Source: an uncultured delta proteobacterium
Lineage (GTDB): Bacteria; Myxococcota; Myxococcia; Myxococcales; Myxococcaceae
DNA: 64,000 nt
Assembly: GCA_963771175.1 (NCBI GenBank)
Contig: CAVYSY010000045.1
Coordinates: forward strand, 96,001 to 160,000
Direction of reading: 5' to 3'
In this document: positions 1-62,057 of the stretch, piece after piece
How positions within the stretch are numbered: position 1 is the first letter of the stretch
Layout of the letters: the number at the start of each line of letters is the position of its first letter
Notes under the pieces: model-generated
What the model was told of the DNA's origin: nothing
Database searches by the model: none
Seen by the model: only the letters and a program-made list of their open reading frames with translations
Program-made: the position numbers and the translations under genes

Positions 1-1
1 C

Positions 2-997: not shown

Positions 998-1101
998 GCC
1001 CCGGGGGTGGGAAGACGTCGAGCGGGCGACGCGTTGGAATGAACCGCTCGAAATGTCGGTTGGCGGGCCGGTCGCGGGGGTAACGTCCCGCACCGGTCCG
1101 C

Positions 1102-9604: not shown

Positions 9605-11155
9605 ATGCCAGGTCCGTTCATCGAGGACGCGCAGCTCGTTCATGCGCGAAAGCTGGCGGAGGACATCACTGAGCCCATCTTCGAGCTCATCCGCCGCCAC
9701 ACCACTGTCTCCGTCGAGCGCACCGTGTTGCGTTTCTTCGGCATCTCGGATGCTGGAGCCGGAGGCGTGCCGCTCGCCAATCTGATGGTCGATCGGCTCA
9801 AGGAAGCCCGAGTCCTCAACAAGGGGGCGGCGTACTGGTACGGCCGCGCCCTGCAGATGGGGGCCCGCAGTCCCCTGGAGGCCGTGGAGCGCCTGACCGT
9901 GCTGCCCATGGAGAAGCTGGGGCCCCTCTCGCCGGAGATGGAGCACAACCTCCGCGAGGAGGTTCGCGCCGAGGCCCACGCGGCCATGGAGGACTTCAAG
10001 TCCCGCATCGCCCAGCGTGACGCGCTGCGCAAGGAGCTGGGCAGTGCCCCGGCGCCGCACAAGTACGTCATCGTGGCCACGGGCAACATCTACGACGACG
10101 TGGATCAGGCTCGGGCCGCCGCGCAGGCCGGCGCGGACATCATCGCGGTCATCCGCTCCACGGCGCAGTCGCTGCTGGACTACGTGCCCCACGGCGCCAC
10201 CACCGAGGGCTACGGCGGCACCTACGCCACCCAGGAGAACTTCCGCATCATGCGCGAGGCCCTGGATGACGAGAGCCGCAAGCTCAAGCGCTACATCCAG
10301 CTCACCAACTACTCGTCGGGCCTGTGCATGGCGGAGATCGCCTTCGCCGCGGCCTACGAGCGGCTGGACATGCTGCTCAACGACGCGATGTACGGAATCC
10401 TCTTCCGCGACATCAACATGCGGCGCACGTTCATCGACCAGTACTTCAGCCGCCGCATCTGCGCCCAGGCCGGCATCATCATCAACACCGGCGAGGACAA
10501 CTACATCACCACCGCGGACGCCTACGACGCGGCGCACACGGTCATCGCCAGCCAGTTCATCAACGAGTCCTTCGCCAAGCGCGCGGGCCTCGAGGACTGG
10601 CAGCTCGGCCTGGGGCACTCGTACGAGATCGACCCGTACCGGGCGGACACGCTCCTGTTGGAGCTGTCGCAGGCCATGCTCGTGCGGCGGTGCTTCCCCG
10701 ACGCGCCGCTCAAGTACATGCCGCCCACCAAGCACAAGGAGACGGACATCTTCTTCAGCCACGCGTACGACGTGATGGCGGACCTGGTGGCCATCTGGAC
10801 GCGGCAGGGCATCCAGCTCCTGGGGATGATGACCGAGGCCATGCACACGCCACTGCTGGCGGACCGGTACGTGGCGCTCAAGGCGGCCAGCTACATCTAC
10901 CGGGCGGCGGCGGGCATCGACGAGGAGTTCACCGTGCGCGAGGACGGGAAGATCGCCAACCGCGCGCGCGAGGTGTTCGCCAAGGCGATGGAGCTGCTGG
11001 AGGAGTGCCAGAAGGACGGCATGGTGGCGGCCATCGGCCGGGGCCACTTCGGCGACGTCAAGCGCGCCGAGACGGGTGGCAAGGGGCTGGATGGGGTCTT
11101 CGAGAAGGCGCCCGACTATTTCAACCCGTTCCAAGAGCTGCTGGAGGCGCCGTGA
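9605..11155 (+). CDS. kamD: Lysine 5,6-aminomutase alpha subunit
   Basis: HTTVSVERTVLR, YVIVATGNIYDD, IRSTAQSLLDYVP.GATTEGYGGTYATQENFR, KYMPPTK, GMMTEAMHTP. Confidence 0.96.
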   Translation: MPGPFIEDAQLVHARKLAEDITEPIFELIRRHTTVSVERTVLRFFGISDAGAGGVPLANLMVDRLKEARVLNKGAAYWYGRALQMGARSPLEAVERLTVLPMEKLGPLSPEMEHNLREEVRAEAHAAMEDFKSRIAQRDALRKELGSAPAPHKYVIVATGNIYDDVDQARAAAQAGADIIAVIRSTAQSLLDYVPHGATTEGYGGTYATQENFRIMREALDDESRKLKRYIQLTNYSSGLCMAEIAFAAAYERLDMLLNDAMYGILFRDINMRRTFIDQYFSRRICAQAGIIINTGEDNYITTADAYDAAHTVIASQFINESFAKRAGLEDWQLGLGHSYEIDPYRADTLLLELSQAMLVRRCFPDAPLKYMPPTKHKETDIFFSHAYDVMADLVAIWTRQGIQLLGMMTEAMHTPLLADRYVALKAASYIYRAAAGIDEEFTVREDGKIANRAREVFAKAMELLEECQKDGMVAAIGRGHFGDVKRAETGGKGLDGVFEKAPDYFNPFQELLEAP

Positions 11156-11643
11156 TGCTCGGCTCGTTGCTGGTGATGGTGCTCGCCGCCGGAGAGCCGG
11201 CGGAGACGCTGACGAAGTACGAGGTGAAGACGCTCGCGCTGCAGGTGCCCTCCGAGTGGAAGCAGTCCGAGGCGGATGGCACCCAGCGCTTCGACGACCC
11301 GTCCGGGGACGCGTACCTGTTGCTGGACGTGGGCTCGGTGCAGACGTCGGGGATGAAGGCCCGGGTGTGCCTGGAGAAGATCCTCGCCGCCATGGGCAAA
11401 GAGGATTGGAAGAAGCTCAAGTTGGGCAAGGCTCCCGCGGCGCGGCGCGTGAACACGGACACCACTCCGGATGGCGCCGAGTCCGTGGAGACCGTGACGT
11501 ACGTGGGCTGTGACGGGAAGACCACCTGGTCGCTCGTCTTCCACATGGACGTGAAGAAGAAGGACCGCTTCGAGGCGCTCGTGGCGAAGGTGGCCAACAG
11601 CGTCGCGTACTCGAAACCGTCCGTGAGCAAGAAGGGGAAGTAG
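11155..11643 (+). CDS. Secreted hypothetical protein (possibly PsbP/DcrB-like fold)
   Basis: ATG overlaps the kamD stop (TGATG); short hydrophobic signal; LQVPSEWK motif; normal codon bias. Confidence 0.7.
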   Translation: MLGSLLVMVLAAGEPAETLTKYEVKTLALQVPSEWKQSEADGTQRFDDPSGDAYLLLDVGSVQTSGMKARVCLEKILAAMGKEDWKKLKLGKAPAARRVNTDTTPDGAESVETVTYVGCDGKTTWSLVFHMDVKKKDRFEALVAKVANSVAYSKPSVSKKGK

Positions 11644-11648
11644 CCGCC

Positions 11649-12437
11649 ATGGCGACGAAGCCGACGAAGCAGATCATCCGCCCCTATGGCGACCGTCGTG
11701 ATGACGGCGTGGTGCAGCTCTCGTTCACGCTGCCGGTGCCGTTGTCGGAGAAGGCCAAGGAGGCCGCCGCCGTCTTCACCAAGAAGATGGGGTTCACCGA
11801 TGTGAAGGTGGCCGCCGCCGAGCGCGCCGCCGATACGTACACCTTCTTCATCGTGTACGCGCGCACCTCGATCTCGCTCGACTATGCGGAGATCGACGTG
11901 CCCGAGGTCGTGGTGAAGAAGCTGGGCTTCGATGACCTCAACGTGCTCATCAAGGACAAGGTGGGCCGGCGCATCGTGGTGTTCGGCGCCTGCACGGGCA
12001 CGGACACGCACACGGTGGGCATCGACGCCATCCTCAACATGAAGGGCTACGCGGGCGACTACGGTCTGGAGCGCTACCCCGGGTTCGAGGCCCACAACCT
12101 GGGCAGCCAGGTGCCCAACGAGGACCTCATCAAGAAGGCCCAGGCGCGCAACGCGGACGCCATCCTCGTGTCGCAGGTCGTCACCCAGCGTGACGTGCAC
12201 AAGGACAACTCGCGCCAGTTCATCGAGGCCGCCAAGGCCGCGGGCATCCACGGCAAGACGCTCCTGCTGCTGGGCGGGCCGCGCGTGGACCACAAGCTGG
12301 CGTTGGACCTGGGCTTCGACGCGGGCTTCGGCCCCGGCACCAAGCCCTCGGACGTGGCCAACTACATCGTGCACCAGGTCCTCCAGAAGGAAGGCAAGGA
12401 GGAGAAGAACATGCACTGGGAGGGGGAACCCAAGTGA
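11649..12437 (+). CDS. kamE: Lysine 5,6-aminomutase beta subunit (AdoCbl/PLP-binding)
   Basis: RPYGD...[13 protein letters not shown]; base-off B12 motif [10 protein letters not shown] followed by PLP lysine in [19 protein letters not shown]. Confidence 0.96.
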
Positions 12438-12829
12438 GTAACGTGAAGGCCGTCATCCGCCTGCGCATGAGCAGCCACGACGCGCACTACGGCGGCAACC
12501 TGGTGGACGGGGCCCGCATGCTGGGCCTGTTCGGCGACGTGGCCACCGAGCTGTGCATCCGCCTCGACGGGGACGAGGGCCTGTTCCGCGCCTATGACTC
12601 CGTGGAGTTCCTCGCGCCGGTGTACGCCGGGGACTTCATCGAGGCCGAGGGGGAGATCGTCCAGACGGGCAACACCTCGCGGAAGATGCGCTTCGAGGCG
12701 CGCAAGGTCATCCGCCCGCGTCCGGACGTGAACGACTCGGCGGCGGACGTGTTGCCGGAGCCGGTGGTGGTGTGTCGGGCTAGCGGCACCTGCGTGGTTC
12801 CCAAGGACAAACAGCGAGGCCAGCGATGA
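12434..12829 (+). CDS. kal: 3-aminobutyryl-CoA ammonia-lyase (hotdog fold)
   Basis: [53 protein letters not shown]. Confidence 0.93.
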
Positions 12830-13665
12830 GCACTCCCATGGTCATTACCGCGGCGATGATCGGCGCGGAGACGACGCGCGAGCAGACGCCCTACCTGCCC
12901 ATCAGCGCGGAGGAGATCGCCGAGGACGCGGCGAAGTGCCGGGAGGCCGGTGCGGCGATGGTGCACCTGCACGTGCGCACGCCGGACGGCAAGCCGTCGC
13001 AGGACACGGAGCTGTTCCGGGCGGCCATCCGGGCCATCCGCAAGCGGACGGACATCCTCATCCAGGTGTCCACGGGTGGCGCGGTGGGGATGGGCGTGGA
13101 CGAGCGCTGCGGCGGGCTGCGGCTGACCGGCGAGGATCGGCCGGACATGGCCACGCTGACGACGGGCACGGTGAACTTCGGCGACGAGGTGTTCTGGAAC
13201 CCGCGCCCGCTGGTGAGGGACATCGCCCGGCGCATCAAGGCGCTGGGCCTCCGGCCGGAGTTCGAGTGCTTCGACGTGGGCATGGTCGACGAGGCTCGGG
13301 CGCTGGCGAAGGAGGGGGTGGCGGAGCTGCCGGGTCACTTCGACTTCGTGCTGGGCGTGCCGGGAGCGCTGACGGCTCGCGAGGACGCGCTGGACTTCAT
13401 GATCAAGTCCCTGCCCGAGGCGAGCACCTGGACGGTGGCGGGCGTGGGGCGGCACCAGTTGCCGTTCGTGGAGCTGGCGGCGGAGCGGGGCGGTAACGCG
13501 CGCGTGGGGCTCGAGGACAACATCTACGTGTCCAAGGGCGTGCTGGCGAAGGGCAACTGGGAGCTGGTGGCGGAGGCGGCGAAGCGGGCGAAGGCGAAGG
13601 GCCGCACCCTGGCCACCCCGCAGGAGGCCCGCAAGCTGCTGCGTCTGGACGTGCCCACCGCCTGA
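12826..13665 (+). CDS. kce: 3-keto-5-aminohexanoate cleavage enzyme
   Basis: [38 protein letters not shown]; pathway context. Confidence 0.93.
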
Positions 13666-13748
13666 GCGGAGGTGGACCCTACCTCTCCCGTCAGACCTTC
13701 CTGTAGAATGTGAGCAGTCAGGCAGGAAGGTCTGGGAGAGGAGCGGGT

Positions 13749-14333
13749 ATGGGTCGGGTCAAGCGTCCAGCCACCTACGAGGACATCGAGGCATTACCGC
13801 CGGGGTGGGTGGGGGAGCTCATCGATGACGAGCTGTGGGCCTTCCCACGGCCGGCGTCGTGGCATGGATGGGTGGCGTCGGTGCTGGGGGGAATGCTGGG
13901 GAATTCGTTCAGCTATGGAAGGGGAGGGCCGGGCGGTTGGTGGATCATCGACGAGCCGGAGTTGCACTTCGGCCGGCAGGTGCTCGTGCCTGACCTGGCG
14001 GGCTGGCGTCAGGAGCGCGCACCCGGGCTGCTCGAGCGAGAGGTGCCCTTCTTCGAGCTGGCGCCCGACTGGGTCTGCGAGGTGCTGTCCCCCTCGACGG
14101 CCGCGTTGGACCGAGGGCGCAAGCTGTCCGTCTACTACCAGGAGGGCGTGAGCCACGCGTGGTTGGTGGACCCGAGGGCCCACACCCTGGAGGTCTACCG
14201 CCGGGGAGCGCGAGGCTGGCGGTTCGCCCGGTACGGGGGTGAGGACGTGGTCCGCGCCGAGCCGTTCGATGCCGAGCCGCTCGACCTGGGGCGGCTCTGG
14301 GCTCCGGGCTCCACCCGGTCGCCCGTGCCCTGA
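13749..14333 (+). CDS. Uma2-family (DUF820) restriction-endonuclease-like protein
   Basis: ATYEDIEALP, GGWWIIDEPELH, VPDLAGWR, APDWVCEVLSPST, WLVDP; GGAG-type RBS upstream. Confidence 0.92.
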   Translation: MGRVKRPATYEDIEALPPGWVGELIDDELWAFPRPASWHGWVASVLGGMLGNSFSYGRGGPGGWWIIDEPELHFGRQVLVPDLAGWRQERAPGLLEREVPFFELAPDWVCEVLSPSTAALDRGRKLSVYYQEGVSHAWLVDPRAHTLEVYRRGARGWRFARYGGEDVVRAEPFDAEPLDLGRLWAPGSTRSPVP

Positions 14334-14343
14334 GTCCTTGGGT

Positions 14344-15081
14344 TCACGGGCCAGCGGGGCCCTGGAATCCCTTCGCGCGGAAGGTCAGGACCAGCGTGTC
14401 CCGGTGCCCCCGGTCGGCCAGCGGCTGGATCGGCGTGCTCTCGTGGATGACGCGCTCGTCGTCGAGCAGGAGCACCGACCACGGCTCGGTCAGGGTGAAG
14501 CGGATGCCGTGCGGGCCGGCGGCCTCGAACACGCGCGTCTCGCCGCCCTTGATGCCCTCGCGCCCGACGAGCAGCACGGCGACGAAGTCCACACCGTCGC
14601 GGTGCGCGCCCTCGGGCGTCGGCCGGCCGATGCCGTCCGTCGTGTCGATGCGGAACTGGTGCGCCTCGACGAACCACGGCTGTGGCCCCTTCATCGCGGA
14701 GCAGCACGCGGCGAGCCCGCGCAGCAACTGCGGCCAGACCGGCTGCGCGACAACGGCTGGCATCATCGGCTCGAACCAGCGCTCCAGTCCGCCGTGCAGC
14801 GCGTTGTATTCGATCGGCTGCCAGTGCGCGCGGTGCGGCACCGGGCTGACCGACGCGCCCTCGACGACGAAGCACGAGTGCCGGCGCGAGCGATAGCGGC
14901 CGCCGTCGCGCAGGTAGGCGTCGGGCGGCAGGTCGTTCCAGGTCGGACGCAGGGCCTCGAGCGCGGCGGCCGGGGTGCCCACCAGCTCGCACAGGCCCGT
15001 GCGGCTGAGGACGGCGTAGCCGCGGTCGCGCAGGACGGCGGTGAGTTCGGAAGGCGGTGTGACGGGCGGCGAGAGACTCAT
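14344..15081 (-). CDS. 2OG-Fe(II) dioxygenase family protein
   Basis: DAYLRDGGRYR.RR, EAHQFRI, PTPEGAHRDG (HxD), VIHESTP, RDTLVLT. Confidence 0.85.
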   Translation of the reverse strand: MSLSPPVTPPSELTAVLRDRGYAVLSRTGLCELVGTPAAALEALRPTWNDLPPDAYLRDGGRYRSRRHSCFVVEGASVSPVPHRAHWQPIEYNALHGGLERWFEPMMPAVVAQPVWPQLLRGLAACCSAMKGPQPWFVEAHQFRIDTTDGIGRPTPEGAHRDGVDFVAVLLVGREGIKGGETRVFEAAGPHGIRFTLTEPWSVLLLDDERVIHESTPIQPLADRGHRDTLVLTFRAKGFQGPAGP

Positions 15082-15182
15082 GGGGGCGGTGTAACCATCG
15101 CCGGGCGGTGCCTGCTTGGAAAGAGCCTTGGCGGGTCCTGGCTGGACTCAACCCCCGCTCCCTCTGCTAGAGGGCAACACCT

Positions 15183-15959
15183 ATGGATACGGAACTGCGC
15201 GGAAAGGGTGTCCTCGTCACGGGAGGAGCGGGTGGCATCGGGAGCGCGGTGGTGCGCGCCTTCGCGGAGGAGGGGGCGAAGGTGGCGGTGCATTACCACC
15301 AGAGCGCCGAGAAGGCCGAGTCCCTGGCGAAGGAGCTGGGCGGAGCCGCGCTGAAGGCCGACCTGACGTCCGAGCCTGACGTGGACGCGCTGGTGCCGGC
15401 GGCGGTGAAGGCGCTGGGTCGGCTGGACGTACTGGTGGCGAACGCGGGCGTGTGGCCGCCGCCGGACGAGGGCGTGTGGCAGATGTCGCTGGAGCGCTGG
15501 CGCCGGACGCTGGCGGAGAACCTGGACAGCGTGTTCCTGAGCTGCCGGGCGTTCCTGCGCCATGTGGCGACGACGGGGACGGGGAACATCATCCTCATCA
15601 GCTCGACGGCGGGGCTGTTCGGCGAGGCGGGACACTCGGACTACGCGGCGGCGAAGGGCGCGCTGGCGAGCGGGTTCCTCAAGAGCCTGAAGAATGAAAT
15701 CACCCGCATCGCGCCGCTGGGCCGGGTGAACACGGTGTGCCCGGGGTGGACGGCGGTGGACCGGCACAAGGACAAGCTGGAGAACCCGGCGTTCATCAAC
15801 CGGGTGACTCGGACGATGCCGCTGCGCAAGGTGGGCCGTCCCGAGGACGTGGCGCGGGTGGTGGTGACGCTGGCATCCGACCGCATCTCCGGCCACGTCA
15901 CGGGCGAGGTCATCACCGTGGCGGGAGGCATGGAGGGCCGCGTCCTGCACGAGACCTGA
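15183..15959 (+). CDS. SDR-family oxidoreductase
   Basis: TGGAGGIG, LVANAG, YAAAK, VNTVCPG. Confidence 0.92.
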   Translation: MDTELRGKGVLVTGGAGGIGSAVVRAFAEEGAKVAVHYHQSAEKAESLAKELGGAALKADLTSEPDVDALVPAAVKALGRLDVLVANAGVWPPPDEGVWQMSLERWRRTLAENLDSVFLSCRAFLRHVATTGTGNIILISSTAGLFGEAGHSDYAAAKGALASGFLKSLKNEITRIAPLGRVNTVCPGWTAVDRHKDKLENPAFINRVTRTMPLRKVGRPEDVARVVVTLASDRISGHVTGEVITVAGGMEGRVLHET

Positions 15960-15985
15960 GCCCATGCGGCTGGAGCGAGCCGACA

Positions 15986-16905
15986 TCACCGTCGCTCTTC
16001 GTCGACCTGGCCATTCGCGAGGATGACCCAGCGGTAGTCATCGTCGCAGGCTCGGCACGCCTTGAACCAGGAGCCCTCGGTGATGAGGGTGCGCTTGTGC
16101 TCCACCAGCCAGGCCCAGGTGTGGTCACGCACATGCCCGAGCCGTCCCTCTCCCGCGCACGTCGTTCACGCACGGCATCAGCTCTCCTTCCACCGTGATG
16201 AACGTGACAGCTCCGAAGATGCCGCATCCCTGGCAGCCATTCGCTGGTCGATGCGAAGTGACGACTCCCCCACGCGTGTGGAGGCGCCGGTAGAAGAAGT
16301 CGAAGCCGAGCTCCGTGGCCCAGTTTCTAACGGCATCCCGGCCGTGGGCGTTGTTGGGCGTCTCCACGAAGTTCACACGGACTCTCAGGTGCTCCGGACG
16401 GAGAGTCGCGGAGATGCTCGAGGTTCTCCCGGACTTGTTCGGGTTTCGCGCCGCGCGTGACGATGGGGGCGAGCTCCCGCGCATCCAGACCATGAACGCT
16501 CACCTGGAACTGCGCCAGTCCCGCGGCGATCAGCTTCCGCTGCCGGTCTGGCGTCAGACGGATGCCGTTGGTGATCGCACAAGGAGAGAAGCCCCGTGCC
16601 GAGAGCGCTTCGACGAAGGACTCCAATCGCGGGTGCAGGAGCGCGTCGCCGAGCCCGCTGAACATCACCACGGCGTTGTCGGGCAGGAACGCCAGGATCT
16701 CCTGGAAGGTGCTCTCCAACATCAATCCCTTCGGGCGCGTCATCTCCTCTCGGGGGCAGAACGAGCAGACGATGTTGCAGGCCGAGGCGAGCTCGATGTC
16801 GAACAAGGGGGCCTGCTCGAGCAGGGCAAGGTTTGCTGCCCGTCGCCGCTCCTCGGACCAGGCCTGCACGGTGGCGACGAGAGCATCGGTCCGCTCAGCG
16901 TCCAT
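15986..16905 (-). CDS. Radical SAM/SPASM(Twitch) protein; about 2 frameshifts
   Basis: CNIVCSFC, FSGLGDALLHP, ITNG, QVSVHG; C-terminal GC..F...FITVEGELMPC.ND ... CRAC reconstructed across frames; stop at 15986. Confidence 0.85.
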
Positions 16906-18079
16906 GGCGTCTTCCCGTGAGGTCGAACTGCCGCATCCGTCCACTCCATCGCACCGGCGAGACGACACCTGCCCCGTGCCGAGCCCTCCACGTGGGCGAC
17001 AGGAAGTTCTCGCGGTCATAGGGCACGGAGGCGTGTTCCTCGGACTTCTGGCAGTTCATTCCGCACCCGTCGCAGTGCCACTCCAACCGTCCTACGGAGA
17101 ATCCTCGCCGGATCCTCCGGTAGAGGGGGCCGTTCCAGATGGTGGTGAAGGGCTCGTTCAGGATGTTGCCCGCTGCGTCGCCTCCATGGGAGTGGCAGGC
17201 CAGCACGGCACCGTCGATGTCGATCCAGGTCTCGTGCCAGGGGAGGTGGCAGGCCGTGGCCTCCAGCGCGGCCGTTGCCGCCGGGGCTTCGGGCTCGGCG
17301 CATTCGAGGGCGATTCCCAGGCGTTCTCCTTCCCGCACGGCTTCTTCCAGCACGGGAGGCCACACGGAGAGGTCGTGCATCAGGGACTCGTCATCCAGCT
17401 CTTCCGTGAACGAGAAGAGGTGGTAGGCCTTCACGCGGTGGGCTCCGAGCTCCGCGGCGAGGCGCACCAACGCGGGCAGCTCCCGGTAGTTCGAGCGCAT
17501 GAGCGTCATCTGCAAGGAGATGGTCGGACGCGCGGGCGCATCGCGCAGGGCATCCACCAGTCGGCGGACATTGGCGCGGATGGCGTCGAAGCTCGCGCCA
17601 CGGCGGAGCCGTTCGAACGTCTCGCGGCTCGCGCCGTCGAAGGACACCTTCACATCTCGGGCGATGGGCTGCATCCAGGCGATGCGCTCGGGCGTGAGCA
17701 GCGTACCGTTGGTCGTGAGATCGAGCAGCACTCCATGGCGCTCCATTTCCCCACACAGCCTGGAGAAGAGCGGCCAGGTGAGCGGCTCGCCGAGGTTGGT
17801 CGGGTGGAGCTCCGTCAGGGTGGGGAACAGCTCGGCTACCACTCGCTCCAGCACTCGCTCGTCCATCCGCGGTTTCTTGCTCGCGCGCGGAATCTGGCAG
17901 ATGCGGGCAGTCGAGGTTGCAGCTATCGGTGGTCTGGAGGGTCAGCTTGACGGGTAGGGCGTCCAGCACCTCCGCGTGGGCCTGGTGGGCCTCGTCCCCG
18001 CGCCGCAGGTATGTCCATCATCTCGCGCATGGAGCGGGTGCCGGGAGTCCAGCTTCTCAGGGGCGATATAGGGATCCAT
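16895..18079 (-). CDS. Radical SAM/SPASM protein; frameshifted, start uncertain (18079 or 18030)
   Basis: CNLDCPH[C] split by an indel, NLGEPL, LTTNGT, VSFDGA; SPASM CHLPW...DGAVLAC...GNI...IWNG...CDGC. Confidence 0.88.
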
Positions 18080-19713
18080 CGATGACTACTCCATCCAGTC
18101 CGAGCCGGTGGGCACAGGGAAGCGCATCCTCTGGCCGATGCACGATAGGCTCTCCCGGACCGTTGAAGGAGGTGTTGATGAGACCGGCGATTCCGTGCCG
18201 CCGCCACAGCCGCGTGAGCAGGGCGCACAGGAACGTCTGATCGTGATCATCCTCCCGGATGACCTGGGCCCGAAGCGAGCCGTCCGCGTGGAGGACGCCC
18301 GCGAACCGTGCTTCCCACTCAGGCCGCAGTCGCCATGCGCCGAGCATGAACGGTGCGAGGTGACTTCGCGCCACCTCTCCGCCGAAGGCTTGTTCGGCGA
18401 CTTCCCGCAGGAGCACGGGGGCCACTGGCCGATACCACTCCCGCCTCTTGAGGGTCTCACTGGACACGTCGCCGGAGCTCGGCGCGATCCGGCCGGGCCA
18501 GGATGCTCCGATGTCCGAGGGCGCGCGGGCCGATCTCGGCCGCACCATTGCAAACGCCGATGACCCTGCCCTCGGCCAGCAAGTCCGCGATCGTGTCCAC
18601 CTCCTGGAGTGGCGTGTCACCCGGACCGGTCCTCGTGCGCCCGAGGAAGGGCCCGTGGAGTGCCACCTCACCGTGTTCGAGGAACTCGACCCAGGCCGCC
18701 GCTCCCAGTGCGAGCCCGGTGTCATTGGTGCAGGGCGGAACGTGCACCGTCTGGAATGCGCCCGAGGCCTCGAGGCGGGCGTTGGTGGGGATGTTCAGCG
18801 CCGCGCCCCCCGCGTAGTAGATGACGGGCGCCAGTGCGGCGCTGCCAGTCGAGGAGCTCCGCGCTGACACTCTCCTCGAAGTGGTGTTGGAGCGTCGCGC
18901 AGAGATCTCGACAGAGTTCCTCATGTGGCTCGAAGGTGGACCACCGGGTGCCGAACCGCCGGTTGACGAGCTCGAGCAGCCTCGCCGGGTCCTCGGGCCC
19001 TTCGAGGAAGAAGCGGTGCTCCTCCAGCCAGGAGAGGAGTGAAGGGGCGGGGGTGCCGTGGCCCGCGTAGCCCATCAGCTTTCCCGGAATGGTCAGGTGC
19101 TCGTGGCTCCCGAACCCGAGGATGGCCCTGACCAGGGGGTTGACGTTGAAGTTGTTCACTGGGGCCTTCAGCCGGTCCCAGGAGGACTCCAGCAGCCGCG
19201 CCTCGCGTCCATCCCACCACCAGAAGGAGCATGCGGAATCCGAGGCGCCGCCGTCGATGTGCGCCAGCAGGCTCTGGGGCTCGAAGCGCCCGACGAAGGG
19301 GAGCAGGCTGGCGACATGGGCGAATTCATGACAGAGCGCCCAACCCGTGGCGGTGCGTGGCCGGAGACCGTCTGGATACCACCGCACCCTGGCTGGCACC
19401 GGCCGTGCGTCGATGCCGACCGCCGCAGTGGGTTCGATTCGGAGGTTGCCATCCGCCGTCTGGAAGCCATCGCCGACGAACGCGTTGACCGAGACGAAGC
19501 GGACCGGCTCGTCCCCGATGCCCACCGCCTCGAGCAACTCGTGCAGATACTGGTCGAGCCGGTTGTCGTGCTTGCGCCGGGTCCACCGTTCCAGCGACAG
19601 CACCGTCTCCACGCGCCCTTCCCGGGCATCACCGCGAGGCCGTGGTCATGGGTGTAGGTGGGTGCCGTGCCGTGCGAGGTATCTCGAATCCCATAGAGCC
19701 CGACAGTCACCAT
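18057..19713 (-). CDS. Carbamoyltransferase (NodU/CmcH/TobZ family); frameshifted
   Basis: [100 protein letters not shown]. Confidence 0.92.
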
Positions 19714-20351
19714 GGCTCCACCGCCCTGTGCTCTCCGCGCCAGATACAGCGCAGGCCGCCGCCGAGCCGCTGGATGGCGAATCCATCGAGCGGCGCCAGC
19801 CAGGTTCCTGTGAATTGCTCGCCGGAGAGCGGAGCGATGGCGGGCATCAGCACCGAGTCATGGGTGATGCACACGCCACTGCCCCTTCTCGCGTCGAGGC
19901 GATCGAGCGCCGCTGACAGCAGCAACCGGGTTCCCTCTCCAGCCGCGCGGACGAAGGGCCAGCGCCGCCCGGAGAGCTGCGCGCGGACGACCCCTTCGGT
20001 GCCCAGCTCGGCGAACAGGCGCGCCCCCTCGGTCCGGTCCATCACCCAGGGGCCAGGCGAGCCCAGCCGGGTGTCCACCTCCACGCTGCTCGTTCCCGGC
20101 CGCTCCGCGAGCGCCTCCGCCGTGCGCCGGCACCGGAGGAAGGGGCTGATGGCGGCCCAGGAGATTCGCGTGCGAAGCCTGTGTCCGAGCTCCAGGGCGG
20201 CTTCGTGGCCAGCGGGAGTGAGGTCGACATCGGCGTAGGGCTCCTCGGGAGGGAGGGGGGCCCGCTCCGCGTGGCGCAGGAACAAGGTGAAGGGGGCGGA
20301 GGGGTCCAGGGCATTGAGCGTACGGACGAGTCCCTCGGGCAGGAGGGTCAT
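19707..20351 (-). CDS. Histidine phosphatase superfamily protein
   Basis: LFLRHAER, SPFLRCRRTA, ITHD; overlaps both neighbouring genes. Confidence 0.88.
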   Translation of the reverse strand: MTLLPEGLVRTLNALDPSAPFTLFLRHAERAPLPPEEPYADVDLTPAGHEAALELGHRLRTRISWAAISPFLRCRRTAEALAERPGTSSVEVDTRLGSPGPWVMDRTEGARLFAELGTEGVVRAQLSGRRWPFVRAAGEGTRLLLSAALDRLDARRGSGVCITHDSVLMPAIAPLSGEQFTGTWLAPLDGFAIQRLGGGLRCIWRGEHRAVEPW

Positions 20352-21282
20352 GGCTCATTCCCCAGGTGCTCGAGGCCCCAGAAGGTGAGCAGCTCGATGC
20401 GCTTGTCGAGCGGGAGCGGCTCGATGGGGCCACAGGCCCGTGCGGTCATGACCACCTTGGCGTAGTGCTCCAGGCCCTCGACACGGAGGAAGGCGTTCCA
20501 GATGGAGTCGGCCCAGGCAACCACTCCGTGGCGCGGAAGGATCGCCCAGTTGTAGTGCTCCATGTACGGGCGCAGCACGGCGGGGCTCTGCTCCGAGGAG
20601 ATCCGGGCGTACTCCGTGGTGGGAATGGGCGCGACGCTCACGTAGGTCTTGTGCAGGTCGACGCCCGCCAGCGAGGCCGCCACGGCATAGGGCGAGTGGA
20701 CGTGGATGACGCAGCGGCAGTCCGGACGGGAGCGGTGCAGCTCGACGTGCAGGCGGTACTCGGACGTCGGACGGCGGTCGCCTCGGAGCAGGGTTCCATC
20801 CGGGTGGGTGACGACGAACTCCTCGGGGCGGATGAATCCGTTGTGCGAGCCGCTCGGTGTCATCAGCAGGGTGCCATCATCGAGCCGGTAGGAGAGGTTG
20901 CCGTCGATGGAGACGTTGTACCCGCGCTCATAGATGAGAATGCGCGACGCGGGTGAGCTCCTGGCGGATGCGCCACTCGGGGTCGGCCTGGTCTGGATGG
21001 AAGAGGCCTTCACGGTCGAGCTGCCCGTGTGTGCCCTCCACCGTGCAGGACGAGGCGTGACCATCGACGAATGGGAGGATCCACTGAAATCGGAGCCCAT
21101 GGGTGGGAAGCTCGTGACCGTGGGGATCGATGAGGACGGCGCTTCCATCGAACCGGTGGGCGACGGCGAACCCCTCCCGGAAGGCGCTGACCGCACGGTA
21201 GCGGGATGCATAGACGGGCTGTCCGGTCCCATCGACATGGGCCCAGGTCCCATCCGGCATCCGCGCGGGATGCGGTTCTGAC

Positions 21283-21290
<8 letters not shown>
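20348..21290 (-). CDS. WG-repeat domain fused to a class II aldolase/adducin domain; one frameshift near 20940
   Basis: N-terminal WAHVDGTGQPVY...SAFREGFAV and LPFVDGHA repeats; then DGNLS, LMTPSG, PTSEYRLH, HVHSPYA and RHGVVAW. EWRIRQELTRVAH joins LIYERGYN to restore the normal aldolase N-terminal helix. Confidence 0.8.
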
Positions 21291-22835
<1,545 letters not shown>

Positions 22836-22836
<1 letters not shown>

Positions 22837-25214
22837 CACGTCACCTCCACCGGCTTGCGCATGTTGCAGCCGAGGCAGAGCGTGCGGTTCCGGTAGGTCG
22901 CGACGAGCCGCTGGTAGGCCTCGCCGTTCCAGATCTCCATGAAGCCCGTCGTCGTGCAGGTTGCCGAACTCGCCGAGCGTGCGCCGCTGCGCGTCCGGCG
23001 CGCAGCAGGGATCGAAGCGGCCCTCCGCGCTCACCCAGGCCTCCTGCCCGAGGAACGGGCACGGACCGCCGGGCGCGAGATCCTCCTGTCGCGTCGTCGT
23101 CGAGCAGGAAGATGTTCTCGAGCAGGACGGGCTCGCCGTTCGGCAGCGGCCCGCTCGGCGGCGGCCGCGCGCGCCTCGAGCACGGCCTCGTTCCAGCGCC
23201 GGATCGCACTCGGGCTCCGCCGCATCGAGAGCGGTTCTGATCTCGTCGAAGTGGGCCCAGAGGTGGTGGCCCTTCACGCGGTCGACGCCGAGGTCGACCG
23301 CGAGCCGCACGATGTCGGCGAGCTCGGCGACGTTGCGTCTCGAGGAACGTGAGCTGGAACGTGACGCGGCAGCGGTTGCCGCCGCTCGCGCGCGTGCGCG
23401 TCGCGCACCGCGATGAACGTGCGCACGTTCTCGAGCACCTTCTCCCAGCGCGCGCCGAGCATGATCGCCTCGTGCGTCGCCTTCGTCGCGCCGTTCCACG
23501 AGATCTTCACGTCCGAGGTGACCGGCACGATCCGCTCGGCCCACGCGCGCGCGCCGAGCCGCGGGAAGGTGCCGTTGGTGGTGAGGTTGAGCTTCACGCC
23601 GTGCGTCGCGCAGAGGTCGAGGATCTCCTCGAAGTGCTCGTAGAGCAGCGGCTCGCCCATCGTCGACGGGATGATCTCCCGCAGCCCGTGCGCGGCGCAG
23701 CCTCCGCGACGACCCGCGCGAATCAGCTCGATCGGCATCACCCGGCGCGGCCTCCCGCGGCCTTGCGCGCGGCTCTGCAGCGGGCTGTGCGGCGAGTGCT
23801 CCTCGCACATGACGCAGTGCAGGTTGCAGGTGTCCGGGTTGGTGTCGAACGTGATCCGCCACGGGCCCGGCGCGGCGTGGCACGCGCGCGGTGTCACGCC
23901 GCGCGAGGACCTGCTCGTAGAGCGCCTCGACGTCGCGCGACGTGGTCGCCGATGTCGGGGATGTCGCCGCTCGCGCTGAAGCAGGTAGCCGCGCGCGCCC
24001 GAGGCGCTCGCGCCAGCGCCGGGTCGTCGACGAGCCGCTGCATCTGCTCGGCGAGCGCCGTCGGGATCGCGGTGCTCGAAGAGCAGCCCGTTGACCTCGT
24101 GGTGCACGTACTCGGCCATGCCGCCCGACGTCGGCGGTGATGACCGGGACGCGGGCCTGCTGCGCCTCGTGGATGACGAGCGGCGAGTTCTCGACCCAGA
24201 CCGACGGCACGACGATCGCGTCGACGCGGTCGAAGACGTCGCGGACGATCTCCTGGTTGCGGTACTCGGGCAGCCACTCGACGCGCTCGGCCAGCGTCCC
24301 CCGGCAGGCGCCGCGGCGATCGCCTTGAGCGCCTCGGTGTCCTGGCCGCGCGGCCGCCCCCAGATGCGCAGCCGCGGCGTCGCCGCGCAGCCGCGCCGAA
24401 GGCGTCGAGAGGTGGTGGATGCCCTTCGCCGGGATGTGCGTGCCGATGTAGCCGAACGTGAATGGCTCGCCCGGCGCGCGCTGCGCGGCCGCGCAGCCGC
24501 GTCGCGGTCGAAGCCGTAGTCGAGGTAGACGCAGCTTGCGCTCGGGCAGCCCGAAGTCGTCGCGATAGCGGTCGATGGAGGTACCGCGACGGGCGCGATG
24601 AAGAGGTCGACGAGCTCGGCCATCTCGCGCACGTGCGCGCATCCGGCGCGCGACCCAGTCGCGTCCAGTAGGCGACGTCCGCCTCGCGCTCGTCGGGCGC
24701 GCCGCGAGAAGTAGCGGGCGTAGCAGCGCTCGGCGCACTTGCGGTCCTCCTGCCCGTCGCACGCGGCCCAGAGGTCGTTCGGGTCCTCCGGGTGCATCTG
24801 CATGAACTGGCCGCGCGGGCACATCAGCCAGTAGTCGTGCAGCGTGAAGACGATCGGGAGCTCGCGGGTCGCGGCCTCGCCGAGCAGCGAGGTCGAGAGG
24901 TGGTTGAGGTGGCCGACGTGGACGACGTCGGGCGCGAACGCGATCGAGCACCTCCGCGAAGCGCTGATCGACGCCGACGTGCCGGTAGCGATCGCGGCTC
25001 CGCGGCATGTTGACGACGTGCAGCGTGACGCGCGGGTCGTCGCGTCGCGCTCCGCGCGCAGCGCGGTAGTCAGGCGCGAACGGGATCCTCCTCGCGCGTG
25101 AAGACGTGCACCTCGTGCCGCTCGGCGAGCGCCGTGGCAGAGGGTCTGCGTGTAGACCTCGGAGCCCGCGTTGTACCGCATCGGGTAGCCGTGGATGACC
25201 TGCAGGATTTTCAT
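22836..25214 (-). CDS. GT-B (GT4) glycosyltransferase fused to a radical SAM/SPASM domain; heavily frameshifted
   Basis: MKILQVIHGYP..NAGSEVY, FTLHDYWLMCPR, GYIGTHIPAKG, VVPSVWVENSPLVIHEA; then CNLHCVMC, STMGEPL, LTTNGT; SPASM CPFLG...DPCC...GNL...CLGC. No stop/start with RBS was seen between the domains, but indels make the fusion less than certain. Confidence 0.85.
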
Positions 25215-25356
25215 GCGCCCTCTCGCATGAAGCTCATCACAGATCATCAAAGCGCAGCATCCATCCCGGCGAGGTATTTCCTGAACAGCGCGGTCCGACA
25301 GTCCTTGACAGCAGGAGGGACGGACCAGCACTCCGATGAGCTCTCCTGCCCCGATT

Positions 25357-27037: not shown

Positions 27038-27188
27038 GGCCCTCCGGTAGCACGAAACGGCGAGAAACGGTGCCACCATCCAGGATTCTAGCCGTAGCGG
27101 TGCCAATCCAGGCGCAAATGTCGAGAACTCAATGTCGGATGACCCGACTCGTGGGCGGGGTTTTCATCGGTGAATTCGGCAGCGGCCA

Positions 27189-27992
27189 TCAAGGAGCCCA
27201 CGAAGGCTTGTTCGCGCCCACGAGGTACAGCACCTTGTCGTCAGAATTGAAGGAGAACTGACCCGCTCTGTCCGAAAGGCTGGAGATCCTGGCATGTCGA
27301 ATCTCTCCGTTCGTGCAGTTTTACGAATCACTTGCGGCATTCCCGGAACTCGATGTCGCTTCCGTCGACGTCTCCGAGGAACAAAGCCATATTGAATTCT
27401 CCCAGTATTTGCTGGCCAATTGCGGGATCGCCTCCGTGGATTTGATGAGGTAGTCTCTTTGGTGTGCCCCTGCTGGTCCCGATTGCGAAATATGTGCGAG
27501 GATCCCCCCTTTCCGCTCGTTGGACGGATGATCATGCCCAAGCAGCCAGCAAATCCTCCGGTATAGAGATTCGTGGCCCCATTTAGGGATGCCAATATGC
27601 TTCTCAGATACGAAGAAGGTGTTGGACATGTGCGGCGCCGAAGCACTATCGGAGACAAACTCGATTTTTACCCTTCCGTCTCCCGCCAGTGTCATCGTCT
27701 TCAATTTTTTCTTGAGGCGGTCTGTTTGGAAGCGTTCGCGTGCTGCTTTCACGCTGGGAAACATGGGACAATCACCACTAACATGCGGCGCGATCATGGC
27801 GCCGAAAATCCAACATGAAGGGATCTTGCCGAAGGAAGCCATACTTCACGTTGGCGGTCATCAGGAAGACGCCCAGGAACTTGTGCTCGCGAGGTGTGAG
27901 CACAACCCCACCTCGACGCAGCCACTTGCTGGCGCATCGATGTCCAAGGCCTCTCCCTCTTCGCTGTGCATGTATACAACTCGTACCGTCAT
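27189..27992 (-). pseudogene. Low-GC fragmented ORF, candidate CheD/CNF1-like Cys-His hydrolase
   Basis: GGAG RBS before ATG 27992; visibly AT-richer than the flanks; YTGGFAGCLGMIIRPTSGKGG-ILAHISQ after adding one G to a G6 run. Confidence 0.4.
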
Positions 27993-28073
27993 GACATATC
28001 TCCCGATGTTGTCGGCTCGAATGGCGCGGATGTGAGGTGCTGACGATTTGAGTCGTCTGACCCCCTGCCTGGC

Positions 28074-29019: not shown

Positions 29020-30444
29020 GTGATGAAGCCACACACCCCATCTGGTCTCACCTCGCGCGGGCTGGTGGCGATCGCCGCCCTGACGGGAGTGCTGTTCGCC
29101 CCGCCCGCGTCTTCCCGCGATGGCGCTCCGAGTCTGGACGTCAATCGTTTTCATCCCGCGGCGGGCTCGGCCCGGTTGCTCACCGTCGACCTCGCCGACG
29201 TGGGCCGCTCGAAGGAACTGGTGTCCCAGTTCGTCCTGCACTACGCGGACCTGCCGCTCGCCTACACCTTCGGTGAGCGCATCACGGGCAAGCTGGTGCG
29301 GGATCGGCTCACCGCCGACCTCTCGTTCGCCTTCTCCCTGCTGGACAGGGTGCAGCTCAGCATGGCCATTCCGGTGACGCTCCACCAGGCCGGCGACATC
29401 GTCTCCTACCCGGACATGGTGACGCGCGAGCCGCGCTCGCTCCCGAGCATCGCGAGCGGCGGGCTGGAGGACCTGCGGCTGGGCCTCAAGGGTCGCTTCT
29501 GGAGCAACGAGCGGTTCGGTCTGGGCGGGGTGGCCGAGGTGGTGGCGCCCACGGGCAACGCCGAGAGCTACCTGGGCTCGGCGAGCGTGACGGGGTCGGC
29601 ACAGCTCATCGGTCACGCCCGGTTCCAGCGGGTGACGGTGGCGCTCAACCTGGGCTGGCGGTGGGCGGAGGAGCAGCGGCTGCTCAACATTCGTGCGGGC
29701 CACGGTCTGCTCTACGGCGCGGGCGTGGAGGTAGAGGTGGCGCGCCCCTCGGACATCCCCGTCTTGCTGCTCGGTGAGGTGTATGGGCTGGCCGCTCCAC
29801 GGTTCGGCGATACCGTGAGCAGTCCCGCCGAGGCGATGTTGGCGGGCAAGGTGCGGGTGCGCGACTGGAGCTTCTTCCTCGGCGCGGGCGCGGGGCTCAA
29901 CGCCGGCTACGGAGAGCCCCGGGTGAGGGTCATGGCTGGCCTCTCCCATGCCTGGGAATACCGGCCCCCCCCGCCTCGGTCCGTGGCTCCGCCGGCGGTT
30001 GCCCCACCACCCGCCATCACCGTGGCGGAGCAGGACTCCCGCCTGCGGCTCTGGGAGCCGGTGTACTTCGCCTTCAACAAGGACTCCATCGACCCGGTGA
30101 GCTATCCGCTGCTCGACGAGGTGGCGCGCTTCATTCGCGAGCACCCCGAGCTCGGTCCCGTCCGGATCGATGGGCACACGGATGACGTGGGCAACCCCCA
30201 ATACAACCTGGAACTGTCGCAGCGCCGGGCCCGGTCCATCCTCGAATACCTCAGCACGAAAGGCGTGCCGGTGGAGCGGCTGAGCCCCGTGGGCTACGGC
30301 AAGCGCTGCCCGCTGCTGTCCAATACGTCCGAGGAAGGTCGTGCCACCAACCGGCGGGTGGACTTCATCCTCGTGGACCGAGAGCGTCGCCGCCCCCGCC
30401 CGGGCGAGTGTCCCGAGCCGCCTACCGCCCAGGGCGGAGAGTGA
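29020..30444 (+). CDS. OmpA-family outer-membrane protein (N-terminal beta-barrel, Pro-rich linker, OmpA_C domain)
   Basis: Signal peptide; VYFAFNKD, IDGHTD, NLELSQRRA, GYG, NRRVDF. Confidence 0.9.
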   Translation: MMKPHTPSGLTSRGLVAIAALTGVLFAPPASSRDGAPSLDVNRFHPAAGSARLLTVDLADVGRSKELVSQFVLHYADLPLAYTFGERITGKLVRDRLTADLSFAFSLLDRVQLSMAIPVTLHQAGDIVSYPDMVTREPRSLPSIASGGLEDLRLGLKGRFWSNERFGLGGVAEVVAPTGNAESYLGSASVTGSAQLIGHARFQRVTVALNLGWRWAEEQRLLNIRAGHGLLYGAGVEVEVARPSDIPVLLLGEVYGLAAPRFGDTVSSPAEAMLAGKVRVRDWSFFLGAGAGLNAGYGEPRVRVMAGLSHAWEYRPPPPRSVAPPAVAPPPAITVAEQDSRLRLWEPVYFAFNKDSIDPVSYPLLDEVARFIREHPELGPVRIDGHTDDVGNPQYNLELSQRRARSILEYLSTKGVPVERLSPVGYGKRCPLLSNTSEEGRATNRRVDFILVDRERRRPRPGECPEPPTAQGGE

Positions 30445-30454
30445 GGAGCGAATC

Positions 30455-58500: not shown

Positions 58501-58886
58501 CCAGCTCGGTCTTCACGTCCGGCGGCAGCTGCGGCGTGATCTTCGACAGGTACTCGAGCACCCGCGTGCGCGCCCAGTACATGTCGGTGCCGTCCTCGAA
58601 GATGACGTAGACGTAGCTGAAGCCGAAGTCGGAGAAGCCGCGCATCGCCTTGACCTTCGGGCGCGCCCAGCAGCGCGGTGGTGATGGGGTAGGTGACCTG
58701 GTCCTCGATGATGTCGGGGCTGCGGTCCCACCGCGAGTAGACGATGACCTGGGTGTCGGACAGGTCCGGCAGCGCGTCCAGCGGGATGTTCCGCATGGTC
58801 CACCAGGCGCCGAAGAGCGCCACCACGGTGGCCGCGATGACCAGGTACTTGTTCTCCGCCGAGAAGCGGATGATGGCTCGAATCAT
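55536..58886 (-). CDS. cusA: CusA-type heavy-metal RND efflux permease; several frameshifts
   Basis: [78 protein letters not shown]. Confidence 0.93.
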
Positions 58887-58890
58887 GGGC

Positions 58891-60324: not shown

Positions 60325-60337
60325 GGGTTCTCCAGGG

Positions 60338-61838: not shown

Positions 61839-61844
61839 GGGTTG

Positions 61845-61860
61845 TGCAGGGCTTGTGCCA
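61845..61860 (-). promoter_or_regulatory. sigma54 -24/-12 promoter for cusCBA
   Basis: The minus strand reads TGGCAC-AAGCC-CTGCA (GG-N10-GC). Confidence 0.65.
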
Positions 61861-62015
61861 CGGGCCGTGTCCCGTCCGAGTGAGGCGGACCCCGGGGGCG
61901 CGGCGTGCTCCATCGGTGGCGTGCCCGGCGCGATAGGAGCCCGGTGCGTCACGGTGTAACCGCGGGAATCACATCTCCCGTGGGGAGACAAGCGCATAGG
62001 CTGGGGGAGGGCAGG

Positions 62016-62030: not shown

Positions 62031-62057
62031 GTAGTACAGATGGAGGAGAGCTCATTC

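Follow-up and report, generated by a model that had tools for sequence, protein, structure and literature searches.

The locus raises the question of whether seven closely packed genes on the minus strand, at positions 15986-25214 of the window (the whole 64-kb stretch of DNA analyzed here), form a genuine unit and, if so, what that unit makes. The block is a real, widely shared and uncharacterized seven-gene cassette whose product is most likely a carbamoylated sugar compound.

Organization and distribution of the cassette

The seven genes, numbered g1 to g7 from the high-coordinate end, are collinear with the intact ORFs of a locus in an Archangium MAG (L001), which carries the same block at 86% nucleotide identity between unrelated flanks. 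In the window, the block lies between a plus-strand classical SDR gene (15183-15959) and RluA (25357 to c. 26000), and a Pfam domain scan of the window found no transporter, regulator, NRPS/PKS or aminotransferase domains inside it, all as described in an initial annotation of this DNA. The six junction overlaps quoted there are likewise present: TGATG, ATGCCTGA, ATGA, ATGGTGA, ATG..TGA at 18079/18057, and ATGGACGCTGA. Five of the six have the same form in L001, where the g1/g2 junction is ATGA (TGATG in the window) and the g2/g3 overlap measures 14 nt. The unit common to both copies consists of the seven genes and about 60 nt only; this upstream leader (25215..25275, minus strand) is still shared although the upstream genes differ, the blastn match spanning 15997-25275, and no sigma-70-like promoter was detected in it. 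The window is 70% GC and resembles a Myxococcota chromosome region with metabolic genes as neighbors; the GC3 of the cassette is 0.76 to 0.85 versus 0.90 to 0.94 in the neighboring genes.

A conserved-synteny comparison of 24 related loci found all seven genes in 14, most of the others being interrupted by contig ends. Because the same gene order recurs in other genomes, the arrangement is more than chance, and the proposal of a tightly coupled conserved operon holds. The cassette is found in unrelated contexts in different genomes. The GT4-radical SAM fusion encoded by g1 is represented by at least 120 protein clusters at 74 to 100% identity to the L001 protein, including many from cultured Sorangium and Polyangium strains; the two parts are fused in most loci and occur as separate adjacent ORFs in L008, L012, L015, and L023. 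An extended SDR homolog adjoins the cassette in 12 loci (six confirmed by Pfam), and no homolog of it occurs anywhere in the 64-kb window. Other neighbors include carAB in L015 and MatE exporters in L012 and L015, with most loci lacking an exporter. A literature search found no characterized pathway with this gene set, in agreement with the initial annotation.

Each of the seven protein families has kept its catalytic motifs, and none of the seven proteins has membrane helices. g1 (22836..25214, minus strand; 29 indel events relative to L001) encodes a retaining GT4 glycosyltransferase (∼25214-23900) fused to a radical SAM/SPASM module (∼23880-22836). Its Pfam matches are spread over three frames in the window, whereas the L001 ortholog is an intact protein of 782 aa with Glyco_transf_4, Glycos_transf_1, Radical_SAM, and SPASM domains; read through, the window copy is 83% identical to it and contains no stops. 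The E-x7-E motif, the CxxxCxxC motif and the SPASM cysteines are kept in 12/12 sequences, E339-x7-E347 of the GT4 domain is invariant in 16/16, and this domain holds an insert with four invariant cysteines. The best solved relative of the g1 radical SAM domain is anSME.

g2 (21283..22839, minus strand; 13 indel events) joins a WG-repeat β-propeller to a Hanks-type kinase-like domain; in the window, the kinase part is marked by a Pkinase match at 22011-21322 (Pfam), and the gene matches L001 g2 by tblastn. The L001 kinase has the catalytic loop HTDLHPEN and a DFA motif, and its nearest relatives are PknB and other Hanks-type protein kinases, not small-molecule kinases. The initial annotation had treated the kinase as part of the system; it is present in window g2, but the locus comparison shows it to be optional, replaced elsewhere by APH-family or P-loop kinases, and only the N-terminal WG propeller (∼250 aa; pLDDT 96.4 for the predicted structure) is conserved among relatives. 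g3 (20348..21296, minus strand; one frameshift near 20940) encodes a class II aldolase-family enzyme (Aldolase_II, 7e-39 by Pfam) whose zinc histidines and catalytic Glu are kept in 17/17 sequences and whose nearest PDB entries are 6vop, 6voq, and 6btd. The WG module ascribed to this aldolase is a short WG-like N-terminal extension that falls below the Pfam threshold (E = 0.011; 16.3 bits against a cut-off of 25.6) but matches WG regions by tblastn, and full-length WG-aldolase fusions exist in other genomes.

The only gene free of indels, g4 (19707..20351, minus strand), is an intact 214-aa ORF for a branch 1 histidine phosphatase (His_Phos_1, 1.5e-9 by Pfam) with its R-H...H core kept in 19/19 sequences; it belongs to the conserved gene set of the cassette. 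g5 (18057..19713, minus strand; three indel events) encodes a TobZ/NodU-type carbamoyltransferase, with Carbam_trans_N and Carbam_trans_C split across three frames in the window; the L001 ortholog is nearest to TobZ (2e-40) and NovN (1.8e-38), and the metal-binding His and Asp are kept in 20/20 sequences. g6 (16895..18079, minus strand) encodes a radical SAM/SPASM enzyme and is interrupted at three sites by single-base insertions, including one within CxxxCxxC at ∼17900. It is a paralog of the C-terminal domain of g1 (32-33% identity to the g1 radical SAM domain), and its best solved relatives by profile are the peptide-modifying enzymes SkfB (7.6e-14) and PqqE (5.4e-11), with BtrN and BlsE also matched. 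The last gene, g7 (15986..16905, minus strand; stop at 15988-15986; two frameshifts), encodes a radical SAM enzyme (Radical_SAM, 5.9e-15 by Pfam) with a C-terminal Cys-rich twitch/SPASM-like auxiliary-cluster region; its L001 ortholog is nearest to BtrN (2.4e-7), followed by NifB, DesII, and BlsE. The relatives of g5 and g7 uphold the earlier description of the block as a sugar-tailoring enzyme set.

A candidate route to a carbamoylated glycoside

On balance, and with modest confidence, we favor a horizontally mobile, cytoplasmic cassette whose product is a small, soluble glycoside bearing a carbamoyl group and whose frame breaks in the window are errors. The best reading of the enzyme set is cytoplasmic synthesis of a carbamoylated, radical SAM-tailored glycoside via a phospho-intermediate. 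The retaining GT4 domain of g1 would first use an NDP-sugar to glycosylate a small phosphorylated acceptor with a hexose, the NDP-sugar being supplied, in most relatives, by the putative extended-SDR epimerase/dehydratase encoded beside g1. The radical SAM/SPASM domain fused to it, together with g6 and g7, would then oxidize or rearrange the sugar by radical chemistry. Where present, the aldolase-family enzyme g3 may act on a ketose-phosphate intermediate; this step is not universal, because g3 is absent from L005, L008, L018, and L023. The histidine phosphatase g4 would remove the phosphate, and g5 would O-carbamoylate a hydroxyl with carbamoyl phosphate and ATP. The WG β-propeller is a candidate non-catalytic docking or recognition module, fused in each lineage to whichever tailoring enzyme the cassette uses.

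Foldseek analysis of the GT-domain model (pLDDT 91.8) identifies MshA as the nearest structure (E 7.6e-21, TM 0.69/0.75), followed by sucrose-phosphate synthase, GlgM, and BshA, and a sequence search gives the same order. MshA of the mycothiol pathway and sucrose-phosphate synthase, each of which works with a phosphatase, and GlgM are retaining GT4 enzymes with E-x7-E, as in g1; they are the top fold and sequence neighbors of the GT4 domain, yet share only 13 to 18% identity with it. These enzymes use small phosphorylated acceptors, with a two-step logic of glycoside phosphate formation and then phosphatase action. Like MshA/SPS-type two-step pathways, the cassette encodes a phosphatase in the same operon, where it may play the corresponding part. 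In contrast to MshA, sucrose-phosphate synthase, and GlgM, the cassette glycosyltransferase has a four-cysteine insert and a fused radical SAM domain, and the cassette has both radical SAM enzymes and a carbamoyltransferase, whereas those pathways have neither.

The likeness to aminoglycoside enzymes, namely of g7 to BtrN, of g5 to TobZ, and of the GT4 domain, is at the level of superfamilies, and the cassette of L021 includes an APH(2'')-like kinase (1.3e-13). BtrM and BtrP have aminoglycoside tailoring roles. A 2-deoxystreptamine aminoglycoside cluster was considered and rejected: cyclitol synthase and aminotransferase were found neither in the window nor in its relatives (Pfam), and domain scans of the window block, of L001, and of accessory genes yielded no 2-deoxy-scyllo-inosose synthase, aminotransferase, or deacetylase.

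The initial annotation suggested that the product stays inside the cell. The window block has no transporter, in keeping with this, but the suggestion does not hold generally, given the MatE exporters beside two relatives and three transporters in the Wolbachia sibling described below. Several observations count against the glycoside reading. We identified no enzyme that would make the proposed acceptor. The best solved relatives of g6 are peptide-modifying enzymes and that of the g1 radical SAM domain is anSME, the fused kinase is nearest to Hanks-type protein kinases, and β-propellers often mediate protein-protein contacts. Most loci lack an exporter, and 5/19 loci adjoin defense genes.

Alternative readings of the locus

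The initial annotation raised a possible defense role. On such a reading, the cassette would be an anti-phage or other conflict system whose product is an antiviral small molecule, such as a modified nucleoside or nucleotide, or whose target is nucleic acid, as a viperin-style chemical defense. Two pVip+VakA modules flank the cassette of L023 (Methanosarcinaceae; pVip scores of 248-265 bits against a cut-off of 180), with Csa3, TPR, and IetA alongside. A BrxHI/SngC-type helicase is directly downstream in L014 (844 bits), and TmtA, an HKD+Snf2 protein and PDC-M51A are found in L004 (230 bits), L002 (357 bits) and L007 (461 bits), respectively; the unrelated genomic contexts of the cassette are also as for defense islands. 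However, the raw count of 5/19 leaves 14 of the 19 scanned loci, and the window itself, without a strong defense neighbor, and no nuclease, abortive-infection, or sensor component was found. Prokaryotic viperins (pVip) are likewise radical SAM enzymes beside kinases, but the cassette enzymes carry SPASM/twitch regions and fall far below the viperin cut-off, scoring 20 to 41 bits on PADLOC pVip models and 25 to 26 bits on the family model NF038283 (cut-off 180 bits; window g6, g7 fragments, and L001 g1). While g1 scores 48.4 bits on PF20706 'GT4 in conflict systems', above the gathering threshold of 26 bits, generic GT4 models outscore it on this protein (89 bits). We therefore consider a conflict system unlikely.

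The frame breaks could instead mean that the cassette in this genome is a dead, decaying pseudogene cluster with genuine frameshifts. Relative to L001, the window carries 54 indel events (47 insertions and seven deletions) that break the frame of 6/7 genes and include the base inserted within the g6 CxxxCxxC motif; the initial annotation merely hinted at such damage ('repair the frames') and missed the indel load. A GC3 below that of the neighbors fits a foreign, possibly dispensable island, and L024 shows that cassette remnants do occur. However, with the extra bases removed, all seven genes read through with no stops at 77 to 91% identity to L001, and nucleotide identity is 0.86 to 0.97 at codon positions 1 and 2 against 0.69 to 0.81 at position 3, a clear excess of third-position substitutions and a purifying-selection pattern. 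The indels are nearly all insertions, whereas bacterial pseudogenes are biased toward deletions, and 42 of the 54 are packed into 2.9 kb (22255..25133). Unrelated window genes are frame-split as well, namely AcrB (in three frames), a TolC-like gene, and an S8 peptidase. Decay is thus quite unlikely; the frame breaks are most likely assembly or sequencing errors, and the organism therefore probably has an intact operon.

Modification of a macromolecule, be it a RiPP-like peptide or protein (in which WG would serve for recognition and proteins would be the substrates of the kinase and phosphatase) or a glycan of the cell envelope, is improbable. In its favor are the SPASM enzymes nearest to SkfB, PqqE, and anSME, the Hanks-type kinase, a propeller that, like RiPP recognition elements, occurs in fusions with several different enzymes, and the annotation of Wolbachia relatives as exopolysaccharide/LPS genes in PMC9203015. 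Against it, the unit common to the window and L001 has no conserved extra ORF (≥60 aa searched), RRE Pfam match, protease, or transporter, lipid-carrier, flippase, and polymerase genes and membrane helices are absent, the fold neighbors of the glycosyltransferase use small soluble acceptors, and the kinase is dispensable and swapped elsewhere.

Relationship to the Undecim Cluster of Wolbachia

On sequence comparison, the core enzyme of the cassette is shared with the Undecim Cluster of Wolbachia, a link that is new here and was missed by the initial annotation. Bordenstein & Bordenstein 2022 (PMC9203015) define this cluster as UC1-UC11 (WD0611-WD0621) of Wolbachia prophage WO, and that paper together with 10.1101/2025.04.16.649125 describes a highly expressed, horizontally transferred island that one Wolbachia lineage has duplicated and whose function is stated to be unknown. 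UC3 is the same GT4-radical SAM-SPASM fusion, with the same Pfam architecture; with the L001 ORF (791 residues) as query, residues 10-788 align to it at 52.4% identity across 781 aligned residues. UC4 carries the WG propeller of g2 in its N-terminal half (45% identity over 246 aa), and UC2 corresponds to the extended SDR that adjoins the cassette in 12 relatives (40%). Like the Undecim Cluster, the cassette is a compact island spread by horizontal transfer.

The two differ in setting and in tailoring enzymes. The Undecim Cluster sits in prophage WO or a WO-like endosymbiont island, whereas the window copy lies in a Myxococcota-like chromosome region, with no phage gene noticed beside it in general domain annotation. 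The C-terminal enzyme of UC4 is an O-methyltransferase, where the WG partner in the window and L001 is a kinase. No matches to g3-g7 were found in the Wolbachia region (L025) at E ≤ 1e-5 by tblastn; their place is taken by the UC4 O-methyltransferase, a PhyH dioxygenase, and two threonine-aldolase-like PLP enzymes, along with a UDP-glucose dehydrogenase and an NTP-transferase, for NDP-sugar supply, and ABC, MFS, and EamA transporters. The pairing of the shared core with sugar-supply and transporter genes speaks for the glycoside reading. None of the Pfam families of UC1 and UC5-UC11 (NTP-transferase, PhyH, ABC, PLP aldolases, MFS, UDP-Glc dehydrogenase, EamA) is present in the window block.

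We tentatively put forward, as a possibility to be taken as a whole, that the extended SDR, the GT4-radical SAM/SPASM fusion and the WG propeller are the core of a large mobile cassette superfamily building radical SAM-rearranged glycosides of a new class. Tailoring would be recruited in each lineage via the WG domain, as carbamoylation here and as methylation and hydroxylation in Wolbachia, and the products may be chemical weapons or defense molecules (antiviral or antibacterial) or host-interaction factors. Such a superfamily would range over Myxococcota, Gammaproteobacteria, Bacteroidota, Spirochaetota, methanogens, and Asgard archaea and, as the Undecim Cluster, over Wolbachia, Rickettsia, and Cardinium.

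The GT4-radical SAM fusion is unusually conserved and is the signature enzyme of the Undecim Cluster. Wolbachia is not easily cultured or genetically manipulated, and the product of this enzyme core can more practically be sought in free-living myxobacteria, which can be cultured and carry a sibling cassette. With three SPASM/twitch radical SAM enzymes and a carbamoyltransferase acting on a glycoside, the cassette would add new chemistry to the few known sugar-modifying radical SAM pathways.

Gene order and reading frames of the cassette

The window has a GC content of about 70%, and the cassette occupies positions 15986-25214 on its minus strand. Pfam searches over all reading frames and tblastn searches with intact orthologues gave the gene order as g1 (a fusion of GT4, radical SAM (rSAM) and SPASM domains), g2 (WG repeat and kinase), g3 (class II aldolase), g4 (histidine phosphatase), g5 (carbamoyltransferase), g6 (rSAM-SPASM) and g7 (rSAM). 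The initial annotation had proposed a translationally coupled operon with six stop/start overlaps, and all six were found in the window; the six junctions of L001, an Archangium MAG with the closest intact copy, overlap too, four of them with a string identical to that of the window. The cassette is bordered by a classical SDR gene (15183-15959, plus strand) on one side and by RluA (25357 onward) on the other. No direct or inverted repeats of at least 9 nt were found at the cassette ends, promoter and terminator scans gave no signal above shuffled expectation, no tRNA was found in the window, and Rfam returned no match at gathering scores in the window or in the related loci L001, L012, L015 and L021.

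The genes beside the cassette at 12784-15959 (a BKACE enzyme, a Uma2-family endonuclease-like gene, a PF10014 2OG-Fe dioxygenase and the classical SDR) are probably unconnected with it, since none is common to L001. Between RluA and a metallo-beta-lactamase-fold gene lies a stretch of roughly 1 kb (27080-28030) whose GC content is far below that of its surroundings and which has no codon-position GC signal. Its two ORFs (27164-27658 and 27321-27842, both on the minus strand) have no match in Pfam or PADLOC, and this stretch is possibly an insert, either foreign or non-coding.

The window aligns with L001 as one continuous blastn match (15997-25275, 86.2% identity), and the L001 copy comprises seven intact ORFs. 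Global alignment of the two gave 54 indel events; 7 are deletions, and the window has 47 insertions, including 41 of a single base. Forty-two fall within 25133-22255, nine in other coding sequence and three at the ends, with per-gene counts of 29 (g1), 13 (g2), 1 (g3), 0 (g4), 3 (g5), 3 (g6) and 2 (g7). Once the surplus bases are disregarded, none of the seven frames contains a stop codon; amino-acid identity to L001 is then 77 to 91%, and nucleotide identity is 0.86 to 0.97 at codon positions 1 and 2 versus 0.69 to 0.81 at position 3. Indel errors or pseudogenes seem to be present throughout the window, because genes outside the cassette are also frame-split: AcrB, a TolC-like OEP gene, an S8 peptidase and a TSP3-repeat gene. 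These genes fall in 55539-62051, 36987-38705 and 30284-31490; the N-terminal part of AcrB is spread over three frames (58726-57465), the TolC-like OEP gene and the TSP3 repeats each occupy two frames, and the N-terminal half of the S8 peptidase is not in frame. Genuine decay (pseudogenisation) would also account for broken frames in the cassette, and we consider it improbable: the excess of insertions, the clean read-through, the pattern at codon position 3 and the other split genes make assembly errors, very dense locally, the most likely source of the frameshifts.

Conserved active sites and a proposed pathway

Catalytic signatures are kept in every aligned sequence of all cassette families. 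These comprise the three CxxxCxxC rSAM motifs with the SPASM/twitch cysteines, the GT4 E-x7-E motif, the zinc histidines and catalytic glutamate of the g3 aldolase, the R-H...H core of the g4 phosphatase and the metal ligands of the g5 carbamoyltransferase. No cassette protein has a predicted membrane helix, and no NCBIfam model reached its cut-off for any of them. By sequence, the nearest solved proteins are anSME for the rSAM domain of g1, Hanks-type protein kinases for the kinase domain of g2, the aldolases 6vop, 6voq and 6btd for g3, TobZ and NovN for g5, and BtrN followed by NifB, DesII and BlsE for g7; those of g6 are PqqE and SkfB, with BtrN and BlsE found at the profile level. A small-molecule role for the fused kinase is disfavoured, given that protein kinases are the solved structures closest to it and that the match to APH covers only 48 residues.

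A model of the GT domain (pLDDT 91.8) has MshA, sucrose-phosphate synthase, GlgM and BshA as its nearest folds, which are retaining GT4 enzymes that use small phosphorylated or acidic acceptors. The N-terminal domain of the GT carries an insert with four invariant cysteines that is specific to the g1 family (C133, C153, C161 and C165 in L015; about 24800-24700 in the window). These cysteines may bind a metal, a feature that would be unusual among GT4 enzymes.

The gene order, the fusions, the conserved active sites and the fold neighbours form the basis of the pathway that we propose. A retaining GT4 would glycosylate a small phosphorylated acceptor, and the three rSAMs would tailor the sugar; the aldolase-family enzyme, where present, would work on a ketose phosphate, the phosphatase would take off the phosphate and the TobZ-like enzyme would carbamoylate a hydroxyl. 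Two less probable functional readings compete with such a carbamoylated glycoside, namely a defence system, on which the neighbouring genes bear, and macromolecule modification, for which the protein-kinase relatives of g2 are to be set beside the small-acceptor relatives of the GT domain.

Distribution, flanking genes and probable mobility

The initial annotation regarded the product as possibly defensive. In PADLOC the cassette proteins returned generic kinase and rSAM matches only, and the 19 flank ORFs of the window itself gave weak generic matches only. The flank set comprised 76 ORFs from 19 loci (75 of a selected 107, plus one extra), the 32 omitted having clear housekeeping Pfam matches; strong matches lie beside the cassette in 5 of the 19 loci (L023, L014, L004, L002 and L007), and this raw count makes the defence neighbourhood a lead only. 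The flanks of L023 contain pVip, VakA, Csa3, TPR and IetA over both sides. Prokaryotic-viperin modules stand on either side of the cassette in this Methanosarcinaceae locus (1-3660 and 12162-19054), one consisting of pVip and VakA kinase and the other of pVip, VakA and pVip.

Homologues of g6 numbered 229 at E ≤ 0.001 among 8000 candidates scored, and the 120 listed are 50 to 89% identical to it. When a single genome of each species was scanned, 24 loci were recovered, 14 of which hold all seven genes (L001-L004, L006, L007, L011, L014-L017 and L019-L021); five are truncated by contig ends (L009, L010, L012, L013 and L022), and the aldolase is absent from L005, L008, L018 and L023, some of which also lack g7. 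In L024 (Methanosalsum natronophilum) only fragments of g5, g6 and g7 are present (9805-11390), an apparent leftover of the cassette.

The hosts are mostly Myxococcota, and the MAG labels of the others are Coxiellaceae, Francisellaceae, Bacteroidaceae, Leptospiraceae, Methanosarcinaceae and Promethearchaeum. This spread, together with flanking genes that differ from locus to locus without relationship and a GC3 in the window of 0.76 to 0.85 for the cassette versus 0.90 to 0.94 for its neighbours, points to a mobile island. Plasmid records searched with g6 gave distant rSAMs only, below 31% identity among the 10 listed of 29 matches. The g6 proteins of L012 and L015, labelled Coxiellaceae and Francisellaceae, are 82% identical in amino acids, and both loci are arranged alike as two divergent operons with a MatE exporter, which points to recent transfer or to a binning or labelling problem.

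The WG domain and the Undecim Cluster

Several parts of the cassette vary. The GT and rSAM are encoded as separate genes in four loci, carAB adjoins the cassette in L015, and MatE does so in L012 and L015. A homologous extended-SDR sugar epimerase/dehydratase adjoins it in 12 loci, with no homologue at L001, at L017 or anywhere in the 64-kb window. In g2 only the N-terminal part of about 250 residues (WG) is conserved; the kinase domain is found in 8 loci and the window, and other kinases occur elsewhere, since L021 has one of the APH family and L008 a P-loop kinase to which an STM4013-like hydrolase is fused.

The WG domain was modeled as a beta-propeller (pLDDT 96.4), and among solved structures BamB and designed propellers come closest to it in fold (TM ∼0.5). 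In a manual tally over the 120 best longer proteins with this WG subfamily, the partner is a family-2 O-methyltransferase in 98 (one also with PhyH), a protein-kinase/APH-like domain in 18, a P-loop kinase in 2 and a class II aldolase in 2; archaeal WG fusions to histidine phosphatase are also listed in the ESM Atlas. Because a single non-catalytic domain is joined to a variety of tailoring enzymes, depending on which one the protein carries, WG may serve in docking or recognition. In L016 (6324-7727), a locus of a Myxococcaceae MAG, the WG protein is apparently joined to the aldolase in a single 455-aa fusion (P0296).

A literature search on this gene set returned nothing relevant, and the accessible part of the eLife 2020 conflict-systems paper (PMC7159879) does not describe the cassette. 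Among phage records, tblastn located a full-length homologue of the g1 fusion, 52% identical, in Wolbachia phage WO. The annotated phage WO region with this homologue is the Undecim Cluster, WD0611-WD0621, whose function is stated as unknown (PMC9203015), as it is in a preprint (10.1101/2025.04.16.649125). The remaining genes of the Undecim Cluster, namely an O-methyltransferase, a PhyH dioxygenase, two PLP aldolases, sugar-nucleotide enzymes and three transporters, differ from those of the cassette. Counterparts exist there only for g1, for the WG half of g2 and for the extended SDR, so the window cassette is a sibling of the Undecim Cluster and not a member of it.
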